Assembly (NCBI GenBank): GCA_031266915.1
Contig: JAISAB010000002.1
Span: forward strand, 12,738-76,737
DNA from: Rickettsiales bacterium
GTDB taxonomy: Bacteria; Pseudomonadota; Alphaproteobacteria; Rs-D84
DNA length: 64,000 nt
Direction: 5' to 3'
Shown one piece after another: positions 4,341 to 53,900 of this stretch. Under the pieces are notes generated by a model. That model did no database searches and was not told where the DNA came from. It saw nothing but the letters and a program-made list of their open reading frames with translations. The position numbers and the translations under genes are program-made. Position 1 is the stretch's first letter, and every line of letters begins with the position of its first letter.

Positions 4341-4415
4341 GCGGGTATAGTTCAAAGGCTAGAATGTCAGCCTTCCAAGCTGAAAATGCGGGTTCGAGTC
4401 CCGCTACCCGCACCA
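4341..4415 (+). tRNA. tRNA-Gly (anticodon TCC), CCA encoded
   Basis: Cloverleaf GCGGGTA/TACCCGC acceptor, anticodon loop CTTCCAA, T-loop GGTTCGAGTCC, 3' CCA. Confidence 0.85.
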
Positions 4416-4504: not shown

Positions 4505-4591
4505 GGGCGTGCGCCGGAGTTGGAGAGCCGGGGCAGACTGTAAATCTGTTGGCTTATGCCTGAGCTGGTTCGAATCCAGCCACTCCCACCA
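4505..4591 (+). tRNA. tRNA-Tyr (anticodon GTA), type II with long variable arm; atypical C8 and one acceptor-stem mismatch
   Basis: Anticodon stem-loop GCAGA-CTGTAAA-TCTGT, variable arm about 14 nt, T-arm GCTGGTTCGAATCCAGC, CACTCCC-A-CCA end. The 5' strand GGGCGTG gives a C4·T69 mismatch. Confidence 0.55.
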
Positions 4592-11695: not shown

Positions 11696-11872
11696 ATTTC
11701 AAACCTCGCTTTTCGTTCAGTTAAAAACCACCAAAATTTGGTGGTTGGAGGTTAAGAACTATAAATCAGTATAGCGTGCTTATTTTGCGGCAAGCCGCAT
11801 TATTCACAACCCTCCAACCTGATAAGTTGGAGGATTTTTTCGTCCCCGCGGACGCTGATTTCAGAGGTTCTT
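11696..11872 (-). promoter_or_regulatory. Conserved structured 5' leader (attenuator/riboswitch-like), subtype 1
   Basis: Gene-sense: hairpin CCTCCAAC/GGTTGGAGG; linker GAATAATGCGG; AACCTCCAACC; terminator CCACC-N-GGTGG-UUUUU; RBS; ATG. Confidence 0.65.
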
Positions 11873-12034
11873 AATCCTCGACGTCGGAACACCCGGCGTC
11901 ACCGGCAATGGTAGCATCTGTGAGATTTAAATCAATAAGATTTTTGTGTCAAGGCAAAAGGTAGAAGGCAGAAGTCAGAAGGTAAAAGGCAGAAGTAGGC
12001 AAGCTTGCCCCAAATCATAAATTTATTACTTCTG

Positions 12035-12095
12035 CTTTTAACTAATGGTTAGTGACAGTCCTGTGTGGTCGGCCAGGCGCGGCCTGGTTCATGAA
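12035..12095. repeat. Short repeat aactaatgg-tagtgaca-tcctgtgtggtcgg…gccaggcgcggc (second copy 12993..13060)
   Basis: Two copies seen in the window. Confidence 0.5.
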
Positions 12096-12129
12096 ACACT
12101 TCCGCTGATTAATTTTTCGCTATACTTTT

Positions 12130-12378
12130 CCTGAAAGCAATGCTACAATCCCTGTGTCGCGGAGAATTTCTGCGATGGGGTGTCACAGCCTTGCACATGC
12201 GTCGAGAGATGATTGGCGCGCTTTTGCGCCGATTTTTATATCACGGCGAAAAATAACTCCTGACCGGGTCAGGAGGGCTCGTGAATATATTGAATAAACG
12301 GCACAATTCATGTGATTGTTGTGAACCTCCTGACCGCCATTTACCGGCGGTTTTTCGTTCGAAAAAAAGGAGGTTAGG
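12130..12378 (+). promoter_or_regulatory. Conserved structured 5' leader (attenuator/riboswitch-like), subtype 2, upstream of a cysteine-rich secreted protein gene
   Basis: Hairpin CTCCTGACC/GGTCAGGAG; linker GAATATATTGAATAAACGG; AACCTCCTGACC; terminator GACCGCC-N-GGCGGTT-UUUUU; AAAAAAAGGAGG-ATG. Covaries with the other copies. Confidence 0.7.
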
Positions 12379-13002
12379 ATGAAGTTTAAAATATTAGTGC
12401 GCGCAACGGCATTTTTGATTGCGTTTGGATTCGCATTCGCATCGTCTGATTCATTTGCAGAGGAGCCTGTAGAAGAAGCCCCCGATTGTAGTGGTCAATC
12501 CTGGTGCACTTACTTTACTGGCGGTAGACGTTGTGGTGGTGAAGATTGCAATGTAGGTAGGTATGGTACTTGCGAGTGTGTGGAAATTGTTGCGCAATGC
12601 ATTTGCAACGCCGGATATGAAATTTTTGGCGACGGCGAAGATTGCACTTGCACCGCGAAATGCGCGAACACCTGCCAGTCCAGCGGCACCACGGCATGCG
12701 CCATCCAAAATGGCGCCGGCACCAAGCAGAATACAGGTGGAAACAACTGCACGGGCAACTGCACGTATGGAGCATGCACGGTATCGTCATGCAACAACGG
12801 GTACTATAAAAATGGAAATGTATGCACGGCATGTACGGCGCCCGACGGAATCACTTTGACTAATGGCAGCAATCCGGCTATCGGCATGAATATAAAAAGC
12901 AAGAACAACGGAGTGAATGGAAGAACCGATTGCTATATAGAAGGAAATTTCAACGATTCGACCGGGGCATTCGGCATCACTGGCACCAATTGCACTTATT
13001 AA
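12379..13002 (+). CDS. Secreted cysteine-rich protein (repetitive C-x-C / N-G-T-rich modules)
   Basis: Signal peptide MKFKILVRATAFLIAFGFAFA; more than 25 Cys; strong Shine-Dalgarno. Confidence 0.6.
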   Translation: MKFKILVRATAFLIAFGFAFASSDSFAEEPVEEAPDCSGQSWCTYFTGGRRCGGEDCNVGRYGTCECVEIVAQCICNAGYEIFGDGEDCTCTAKCANTCQSSGTTACAIQNGAGTKQNTGGNNCTGNCTYGACTVSSCNNGYYKNGNVCTACTAPDGITLTNGSNPAIGMNIKSKNNGVNGRTDCYIEGNFNDSTGAFGITGTNCTY

Positions 13003-22475: not shown

Positions 22476-22665
22476 TTTTAACCTGTTTGACACAAAGCCA
22501 CCCACAGCGAACGCAAGGGTGGTTGGAGGTTAAAGACTATAATTTTCAGAAAATAGCGGGCTTATTCGATATATTCGCCGCCCTCCAACCGATGGTTGGA
22601 GGTTTTTATCGTCCCCGCGGACGCTGAAAATTAAGAGGTCTTTACGCCCCGCCGCAGGCCTTTGC
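22476..22665 (-). promoter_or_regulatory. Conserved structured 5' leader, subtype 1 (as 11696..11872)
   Basis: Hairpin AACCTCCAACC-atc-GGTTGGAGG; linker CGAATATATCGAATAAGC; AACCTCCAACC; hairpin CCACCC-N-GGGTGG; shared distal module cgtccccgcggacgctga…agaggtc. Confidence 0.65.
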
Positions 22666-22719
22666 CGCCCGCGACAAATATAGTTTAGCAAAAACGAGAA
22701 TGTAAATCAATAGGTTCGT

Positions 22720-52777: not shown

Positions 52778-53050
52778 TCCAAACCTCCTTTTTTAGCGAA
52801 TGAAAAAACCGCCGGGAAAAAGGCGGTCGGGAGGTTTACGACAATCCAATGAATTGTGCCGCTTATTCAATATATTCGCGAGCCCTCCCAACCAAGTCGG
52901 GAGATATTTTTCGCCGCAATAACAAAAATGGCGCGAAAGCGCGCCGATTTGTCAACAGCGCATTGGAAAGAGGTCGTAACACCCCGTCGCGGAAACTCTC
53001 CGCGGCACTTGAATCATACCAATAGTGAAATGTTTTTACAAGTGGTATAA
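52778..53050 (-). promoter_or_regulatory. Conserved structured 5' leader, subtype 2 (as 12130..12378)
   Basis: Gene-sense: CTCCCGAC/GTTGGGAG hairpin; GAATATATTGAATAAGCGG; AAACCTCCCGACC; terminator GACCGCC-N-GGCGGTT-UUUUUU; CATTCGCTAAAAAAGGAGG-ATG; distal module ccccgtcgcggaaactctccgcggcac. Confidence 0.7.
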
Positions 53051-53672: not shown

Positions 53673-53900
53673 CCAAACCTCCTTTTTTTTTGCGAATGAA
53701 AAAACCACCAGAAATTGGTGGTTGGAGGTTAGCGACTATCATTGCAAATAGCGGCGGTATTCGATATATTCCCGCGCCCTCCAACCGAAACGATTGGAGA
53801 CACAAAAAACATGCACGACAACGCTTCGTGCCAGCGTGCAATGAAGGAGGTCGCTAAACCCCGTCGCGGAAACTCTCCGCGGCACAAAGATTATGCACCG
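53673..53900 (-). promoter_or_regulatory. Conserved structured 5' leader, subtype 2: candidate attenuator/riboswitch
   Basis: Gene-sense: CTCCAA/TTGGAG hairpin; GGTTGGAGG…linker GAATATATCGAATACCGCC…AACCTCCAACC; terminator CCACC-AATTTCT-GGTGG-UUUUUU; CATTCGCAAAAAAAAAGGAGG-ATG. Confidence 0.7.

Follow-up and report, generated by a model that had tools for sequence, protein, structure and literature searches.

Chromosomal leaders related to phage C4 RNAs as probable transcription attenuators of secreted-protein genes in gut Alphaproteobacteria

Introduction

The c4-a1b1 and C4 RNAs of the phage P1 and P7 immI region form an antisense RNA system in which short sequences, a and b, set the specificity. 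Here we describe a 5' leader of 190-235 nucleotides (nt) that occurs in five copies (A to E) in a 64-kb stretch of DNA, the window, from an uncultured Rickettsiales bacterium of the Rs-D84 lineage (GenBank assembly GCA_031266915.1, contig JAISAB010000002.1, positions 12,738 to 76,737 of the forward strand). Each copy ends at the start codon of an open reading frame (ORF). Judging by its sequence and architecture, the leader is an unannotated and strongly diverged branch of the C4 / a1b1 / sRNA-Xcc1 / IsrK group, and not a new kind of RNA. We think it likely that each copy is an attenuator, that is, the 5' leader of its own mRNA and a diverged relative of phage P1/P7 immI c4, acting by premature transcription termination. 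Literature searches by motif sequence, Rs-D84 noncoding RNA and riboswitch candidates returned no description of this leader.

In phage P1, the annotated order of parts is a -10 box, a first hairpin, a second hairpin carrying a1, then b1, a spacer hairpin with a U run, and finally C4. The loop of C4's second hairpin carries b', and a' immediately precedes the 3' strand of the closing stem; the sites a2/b2 are at the ribosome-binding site of icd. The folded P1 C4 RNA is described as binding its targets via a' and b'. The c4-a1b1 motif consists of two covarying hairpins that encompass a1, immediately 5' of b1, and in several C4 RNAs the P1 stem's 3' half overlaps a terminator's 5' half (Weinberg et al. 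2010 supplement, PMC2864571).

Two other Rfam families enter the comparison. The sRNA-Xcc1 RNA is annotated as an 88-nt trans-acting small RNA (sRNA) of Xanthomonas and Xylella integron cassettes, genomic islands and the APSE phage; it has been reported directly upstream of protein genes (symE, ORF6N), and the sources consulted on it report neither an a1b1 domain nor an attenuator role. IsrK (RF01394), from the Salmonella Gifsy-1 prophage, is described as a short terminated RNA that also occurs within a longer read-through mRNA.

Covariation support for the closing helix and the whole leader

A preliminary description of the window had proposed an RNA helix, there called (1):(3), maintained by compensatory base changes between leader copies. 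This is the helix between elements 2 and 3 in our numbering (helix 2:3). The sequence strings that it quoted are all present where it had placed them. In copy A, element 2 (GGTCAGGAGG, 12267-12276) and element 3 (CCTCCTGACC, 12326-12335), both on the + strand, are the 5' and 3' strands of a closing stem, which is 9-10 bp long in the leaders. Between copy C (element 2 GGTTGGGAGG, 52884-52893; element 3 CCTCCCGACC, 52825-52834; - strand) and copy A, one pair changes from G-C to A-U on both sides and one U.G to C-G, just as that description had it; the helix of copy C contains one U.G wobble. Copies B and D (element 2 GGTTGGAGG, element 3 CCTCCAACC, - strand) have one base pair fewer, absent from both strands. 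The terminator quoted there as CCACCC/GGGTGG belongs to the fifth copy, E. The five paralogues offer only about two informative positions in helix 2:3, which is thin, and we therefore collected homologues.

An exact pattern, GGAGGGN{4,5}GAATATATNGAATA, matched more than 118 stretches in a set of species-representative genomes, all of them from metagenome-assembled genomes (MAGs) of uncultured gut and rumen Alphaproteobacteria, many named Candidatus Enterousia; single MAGs hold at least six such matches. A second pattern, with helix 2:3 fixed and the loop of the enclosed hairpin P5 left free, matched more than 120 metagenome stretches. A MAFFT alignment of the five paralogues was too noisy in the variable regions; instead we used 49 seeds to build a covariance model, with which we aligned 118 copies (alignment A4) and 105 copies (alignment A6). 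All of these 223 homologues come from gut or rumen Alphaproteobacteria MAGs and metagenomes.

Helix 2:3, to which alignment A4 was not fitted, is 98.4% paired there, nearly always in Watson-Crick form, so that the proposal of an RNA helix kept by compensatory change holds well beyond the window. Three of its positions switch between Watson-Crick pairs, columns 216-319 (GC 74, UA 29, UG 5, AU 2), 217-318 (UA 69, CG 39, UG 4) and 218-316 (UA 72, AU 39), and at least eight compensated variants occur among the homologues. The preliminary description had named independent variation of the two strands, giving unpaired combinations in further copies, as the outcome that would overturn the helix; we do not see it. 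Among 15 bystander copies picked by neither search pattern, 12 keep all pairs of helix 2:3 and two more have a single mismatch, and these copies bring in the new compensated states GGAGU/ACUCC and GGAGA/UCUCC.

The support extends to the whole structure. None of 500 shuffles reaches the observed scores, and control structures obtained by sliding the pairing by 1-3 columns are 37-47% paired. Leader copies are about 62% identical in sequence, yet two-sided changes have preserved 94.5% of the predicted pairs. Seven helices beyond 2:3 covary, two of which are long-range interactions between the 5' two-hairpin domain and the 3' domain. G.U pairs outnumber A.C pairs by 368 to 52, and the structure is therefore read on the sense RNA strand.

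Architecture of the leader

In this section coordinates are those of copy A on the + strand unless another copy is named. From the -10 box (TACAAT, 12144-12149), the transcript is predicted to start some 6 nt further on, where hairpin P1 begins. In each copy of the window the leader starts about 6-7 nt after the -10 box, and in 144 of 219 homologues P1 is preceded, at a distance of 6-7 nt, by a hexamer that matches TATAAT at five or more of its six positions. Transcription of the leader is thus predicted to begin at a promoter of its own. P1 is an 8-bp hairpin (GTCGCGGA gaatt TCTGCGAT, 12156-12176) in which 92% of the cells are paired and all eight pairs have changed on both sides; it matches hairpin 1 of Rfam c4-a1b1. 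P2 is a mini-hairpin of 2-4 bp with the form GGGG...CCCY (GGGG...CCUU in copy A, 12177-12193), and it also covaries (GC 59, AU 23, GU 21 at columns 45/59 of A6).

Two long-range helices connect P2 and its flank to the 3' domain. In the first, Pa, the P2 loop (a1, UCACAGC, 12183-12189) pairs with the 7-8 nt directly 5' of element 3 (a', GTTGTGA, 12318-12324). Pa is 98.8% paired with seven out of seven pairs changed on both sides (A4), and a perfect 7-bp partner for a' is present in the P2 loop in 119 of 123 copies. Some nucleotides are common to Pa and either P2 or P7; at these the covariation follows Pa, including at the shared C/G pair. A single invariant A separates Pa from element 3. In the second helix, P6, the strand just 3' of P2 (b1, CACATG, 12194-12199) pairs with the loop of hairpin P7 (b', CATGTG, 12309-12314). 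Its four modelled pairs are 90% paired and all covary. Contiguous b1:b' complementarity averages 6.85 bp over the 223 copies and falls to 3.7 bp once the loops of different copies are exchanged, a drop which indicates that the pairing is specific to each copy. The a and b sequences differ between paralogues of one genome yet stay complementary.

P2 and b1 are followed by P3, a hairpin of variable size (26 copies lack it, 153 have a short form and 44 a long one) whose pairs covary, and then by an A-rich linker that leads to element 1. In copy A, P3 (12200-12248) has an outer stem, CGTCG/CGGCG, around a GC hairpin (12215-12230) and ends in a U run, and 28 of the 44 long P3 hairpins have this GC hairpin and U run. 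In copies A (12215-12238), C (52920-52945 region) and D (53805-53839), the long P3 has the appearance of a second, internal terminator, which is similar to IsrK and occupies the position at which, in phage P1, the Rfam isrK model stops. By eye, the leaders without P3 (L005, L022, L023, L026, L070, L082, L084, L085, L099, L002 and L016) mostly precede proteins of 60-90 aa with an XRE-type helix-turn-helix (HTH); this may be the ancestral context, resembling phage immunity.

The 3' domain is a three-way junction closed by helix 2:3 and enclosing the hairpins P5 and P7. P5 (GCTCG/CGGC, 12277-12302, with conserved loop GAAUAUAUUGAAUAA) is 98% paired and all four of its pairs covary. In the metagenome set, where the loop was unconstrained, the P5 loop has the consensus RAAUA, then 3-5 nt or an inserted hairpin, then RAAUAR; a comparison by eye with the k-turn, loop E and the 11-nt tetraloop receptor gave no convincing match for this module. 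P7 (ACAAT/ATTGT, 12303-12319) is 95% paired and includes one pair with UA 54 and AU 51 and no mismatch (A6).

Elements 1, 2 and 3 provide alternative pairings. Element 1 (CTCCTGACC, 12257-12265) is an upstream copy of element 3, more degenerate than it, and element 2 is able to pair with one or the other, the two pairings being mutually exclusive. The 1:2 hairpin, at 95.8% paired, contains G.U pairs and mismatches more often than helix 2:3 does. The preliminary description had seen the upstream element change in step with the helix strands among the window copies, and this co-variation of element 1 with elements 2 and 3 is borne out across more than 200 homologues. Element 3 in turn overlaps an intrinsic terminator: the final 2-4 nt of the element are at the same time the first of the terminator's 5' strand. 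In copy A the terminator (12332-12355) consists of GACCGCC (12332-12338), the loop atttacc, GGCGGTT (12346-12352) and a U run, and the last four nt of element 3 are the first four of the stem. Of 117 copies, 108 (about 92%) have a terminator that overlaps element 3, which also agrees with the earlier remark that terminator stems differ between copies while staying paired. A Shine-Dalgarno sequence, GGAGG, and the ATG follow at 12369-12381, and the ORF at 12379-13002 encodes a 207-aa secreted Cys-rich protein. Most leaders among the homologues lie 40-60 nt upstream of a same-strand ORF with a Shine-Dalgarno sequence. For all five window copies, the minimum-free-energy fold contains P1, Pa, P6, P3, the 1:2 hairpin, P5 and the terminator.

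Part of element 3 (AACCUCC, 12326-12332) is also complementary to the Shine-Dalgarno region of its own gene (GGAGGUU, 12369-12375), and the same is seen in copies C and D. The extended complementarity is not general in other loci. On these sequences, a second, translational layer of control is conceivable.

Relation to C4, c4-a1b1, sRNA-Xcc1 and IsrK RNAs

At gathering thresholds, Rfam annotates only two tRNAs in the whole window and leaves the leaders unmatched. The link to C4 and Xcc1 appears only at E-value thresholds and on the more canonical copies, with the matches on the correct strand and in the correct order: the 5' domain matches c4-a1b1 and the 3' domain sRNA-Xcc1. The best-scoring family for the 3' domain is sRNA-Xcc1 (RF02221), with 33.3-37.0 bits on five copies in matches to the full-length model (1-87), below its gathering score of 53. 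Local searches give E-values of 3e-5 and 2e-4, and a search of 62 kb gives 0.008-0.045. Copy E has such a match, of 33.3 bits, at 22513-22590; copies A and B have none. The c4-a1b1 model (RF03163), with a gathering score of 46.7, scores copy A (12143-12196) at 17.2 bits and copy E (22631-22688) at 13.9 bits, and isrK reaches only 13.8 bits on the leader. The C4 model (RF01695, gathering score 45 bits) has no match at E<=10 on copies A, B, E or locus L034. In phage P1, used as a positive control, Rfam gives 68.8 bits for C4, 51 bits for c4-a1b1 and 35 bits for isrK, and the isrK model spans the a1b1 hairpins and the spacer hairpin.

The leader has its parts in the same order as the phage P1/P7 immI region. 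Like c4-a1b1, its 5' domain has two covarying hairpins, the P2 loop containing a1 and b1 following a few nt after P2, and the sequences are alike: GUCRYNG...CNRYGAC-CGGG-UGU-GGUAA-CCCG in c4-a1b1 and GUCGCGG...CUGCGAU-GGGG-UGU-CACAGC-CUUG in the leader, with the common signature GUC...GAY-GGGG-UGU-(a1)-CCC. Like C4, its 3' domain has a closing stem around two hairpins, b' in the second loop and a' before the 3' strand. Pa therefore corresponds to a1:a', P6 to b1:b', and the helix of the preliminary description, helix 2:3, is the closing stem of a three-way junction of the C4/sRNA-Xcc1 type. A terminator overlapping the 3' half of the closing stem is another feature that the leader has in common with some C4 RNAs. 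With sRNA-Xcc1 it has in common a 9-bp G-rich closing stem, then GC, a hairpin with a loop of the AAUA type, a second hairpin, a U-rich linker, the 3' strand and an RCC tail. With IsrK the likeness is in the hairpin and U run, found at the same place in the long-P3 leaders including A, C and D; the downstream genes differ.

There are also differences. The closing stem is about 17 bp in the C4 RNA of phages P1 and P7 and 9-10 bp in the leader. The first hairpin of phage C4 has a stable tetraloop, where the leader has its RAAUA/RAAUAR loop. RNase P excises C4 by a cut where the closing stem starts on its 5' side; in the leader, the tail after helix 2:3 (R-C-Y: A 74 / G 38; C 96; C 65 / U 41) bears a partial resemblance to NCCA. 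The leader has an explicit element 1 that competes for the closing stem. In phage P1 itself, ACGCCC just upstream of C4 is complementary to GGGCGU, the 5' strand of the closing stem (NC_005856 48330-48352; L246:431-436 and 448-453), an arrangement analogous to element 1. The leaders show no integron surroundings such as those of sRNA-Xcc1, although no search aimed at such features was made. Finally, the leader is chromosomal, numerous, alphaproteobacterial and placed before secreted-protein and XRE genes, whereas the phage P1 system is placed before icd-ant.

The composite architecture joins three separately curated Rfam families: c4-a1b1 and, via it, the C4 clan; sRNA-Xcc1; and isrK. By this architecture, the RNAs upstream of genes that carry the sRNA-Xcc1 annotation may be leaders acting in cis. 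The alignment, rich in covariation, with more than 220 sequences and two long-range pairings, is also a resource for structural and mechanistic work.

Proposed mechanism and alternative explanations

As an attenuator, which we favor as the probable role, the leader would set how much transcription reaches the downstream gene. By default the 1:2 hairpin would act as an anti-antiterminator, freeing element 3 for the terminator and giving the OFF state. The closed C4-like fold, with helix 2:3 formed, would be the antiterminator: it would remove the base of the terminator stem and let RNA polymerase read into the gene. Two further steps are more speculative. Docking of a1b1 onto a' and b' probably stabilizes the closed fold, and a processed or terminated C4-like RNA with the same a and b could compete in trans, giving a feedback specific to each gene. 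Such competition by a cognate C4-like RNA is an attractive possibility, since it is the a and b sequences that set specificity in phages P1 and P7. What is new relative to the described systems is the probable use of a C4-type RNA as a chromosomal multi-copy attenuator ahead of genes for secreted proteins and XRE regulators, where an intrinsic terminator takes over from a2/b2 masking of the ribosome-binding site. A broader proposal, which we regard as doubtful, is that a phage-type C4/a1b1 module has been domesticated and amplified in a genome of less than 1 Mb, giving each gene a private a/b "address" and an RNA feedback loop. In this loop, terminated or processed C4-like RNA would compete only for the a1/b1 of nascent transcripts from its own gene. 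If true, the private feedback would let an obligate gut symbiont switch its secreted and surface proteins ON or OFF one gene at a time, a kind of phase variation based on RNA.

Several observations weigh against attenuation by a C4 relative. No Rfam family reaches its gathering score on the leaders (33-37 against 53 bits, and 14-17 against 46.7 bits), and our leader covariance model scores phage P1 at 4.2 bits, in the right place but not significantly. The relationship is therefore distant, and homology is argued from the architecture together with weak scores. We find no a2/b2 sites within about 160 nt downstream of 214 copies; complementarity of a' and b' to the copy's own downstream 160 nt is like that to the downstream sequences of other copies (4.62 vs 4.45 and 4.94 vs 4.94). 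Nor does the rest of the 64-kb window contain a second a..b pair. In nested-only folding, forcing helix 2:3 costs 6-19 kcal/mol (copy E left out), an upper bound given that such folding omits pseudoknots and cannot hold both long-range pairings together with 2:3. Coexistence of 2:3 with a1:a' and b1:b' should be possible if the linker is long enough, by analogy with the P1 C4-target complex. And the terminators could be constitutive and the RNA purely trans-acting.

This last point is the core of the alternative that survives best, although we consider it unlikely: a stand-alone gene for a trans-acting sRNA with a constitutive terminator, with downstream genes that have their own promoters and with the a'/b' targets elsewhere. 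Both sRNA-Xcc1 and C4 are described as trans-acting, the leader terminators look strong, and one locus (L157) has three promoter-leader-terminator units in tandem without an ORF. The position of most leaders, 40-60 nt ahead of a same-strand ORF with a Shine-Dalgarno sequence, argues for a cis role instead, as does the three-way switch formed by the co-varying elements 1, 2 and 3 with a terminator that overlaps element 3: a plain terminator needs neither. The lack of a second a/b site, both in the downstream 160 nt and in the window, also counts against this alternative.

An orphan riboswitch is rather improbable. Here a small molecule, such as a host metabolite or second messenger, would stabilize helix 2:3 and turn on a regulon of surface and secreted proteins. 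The mutually exclusive 1:2, 2:3 and 3:terminator pairings are those of a riboswitch expression platform, with the 3' strand of the closing helix overlapping the terminator; a complex fold has been strongly conserved, with an unpaired RAAUA/RAAUAR module that does not vary, and many copies per genome precede varied secreted-protein genes. The C4/a1b1 antisense system, however, to which the sensor domain of the leader is homologous, accounts for this architecture without a ligand. The most variable parts are the a/b pairings, which are the specificity codes in phages P1 and P7, and no aptamer-like pocket can be pointed to. We also considered a T-box leader and rejected it: the Rfam search has no T-box match at E<=10, and the antiterminator helix 2:3 has no bulge.

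Attenuation by a leader peptide is very unlikely. Element 2 resembles a Shine-Dalgarno sequence (GGAGG) and could precede a mini-ORF, and the P5 loop reads AUG...UAA (6 codons) in copy B and AUU GAA UAA in its standard form; but over 118 loop variants there is no conserved start codon or frame in this loop, the inserted hairpins vary in length, and an AUG at the P1/P2 border is present in only one of the five window copies. Both the mini-ORF in the P5 loop and an upstream ORF from the AUG of ...GAUGGGG were rejected for want of a conserved start or frame. There is hardly any room for a repeated DNA element, either a recombination cassette among surface-protein genes or a protein operator, even though the variable surface-protein genes of other small-genome bacteria share conserved 5' regions and the leaders precede heterogeneous secreted proteins, when pairs are retained by two-sided changes at such low sequence identity and the 7:1 excess of G.U over A.C is strand-specific.

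Genes behind the leaders, hosts and distribution

All five window leaders precede an ORF with an N-terminus resembling a signal peptide. The same is true of 67 out of 107 downstream ORFs among the homologues, of which 36 have at least 4% cysteine. Pfam assigns a small XRE-type HTH to 14 of 108 downstream proteins and little else, most having no family. In a few loci (L015:2122-3471 and L243:8627-10414) the gene behind the leader encodes an MsbA-like ABC exporter (ABC_membrane and ABC_tran). Five leaders in 64 kb, and at least six in single MAGs, suggest that much of the secreted-protein repertoire shares one RNA device.

Leaders also occur in tandem. Locus L157 (151-982, + strand) has four promoter-leader-terminator units within about 830 nt, and only the last has an ORF behind it. 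Further tandem pairs are found in L071, L074, L012, L068 and L183. The L157 array resembles the five tandem sRNA-Xcc1 copies of Xylella fastidiosa Temecula1 (PMC12189769).

The host bacteria belong to the order Rs-D84 (Ca. Enterousia); they are uncultured, with genomes of about 0.75-1.0 Mb, and are probably dependent on partner cells (PMC12306168). A scan of IMG/VR finds the leader in seven contigs classed as viral (L239-L245). Two of them were inspected; they encode a secreted protein, an ABC exporter, a PLD-like nuclease and a DNA methylase, and from this gene content they look chromosomal rather than phage.

Other copies in the window

A scan of the 64-kb window with the covariance model finds exactly five leaders, with scores of 100-131 bits, and no other match. 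The four besides copy A are all on the - strand. Copy B (11696-11913, 117.2 bits, followed by the ORF 11695-11432) has its -10 box at 11908-11913, P1 at 11880-11900, element 1 at 11826-11833, element 2 at 11811-11819, P5 with an inserted hairpin at 11776-11810, P7 at 11759-11774, a' at 11752-11759, element 3 at 11743-11751 and the terminator at 11723-11746. Copy C (52778-53018, 107.4 bits) precedes the ORF 52777-52205; its element 1 (CTCCCGAC) is at 52896-52903 and its terminator at 52803-52828. Copy D (53673-53895, 102.9 bits, ORF 53672-53124) has elements 1, 2 and 3 at 53791-53799, 53778-53786 and 53720-53728 and the terminator at 53699-53723. Copy E (22476-22690), which was found by a pattern search, has the highest score, 130.6 bits, and precedes the ORF 22475-21600. 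Its parts are P1 (22651-22675), the a1 hairpin (22635-22650), b1 (22624-22632), element 1 (22594-22602), element 2 (22582-22590), P5 (22556-22581), P7 (22537-22556), a' (22531-22537), element 3 (22521-22529) and the terminator (22490-22522).

Leaders A (+) and B (-) are divergently transcribed and share a 230-bp spacer (11914-12143). Searched against Rfam, the spacer gives only snoRNA and miRNA matches at chance level. It contains direct repeats, GGYAGAAG/GGCAGAAG, at about 11950-11998 and an inverted CTTCTGC near 12030. Elsewhere in the window, tRNA genes are found at 4341-4412 and 4505-4588 (+ strand), the second of which, with its long variable arm, scores low at 39 bits.

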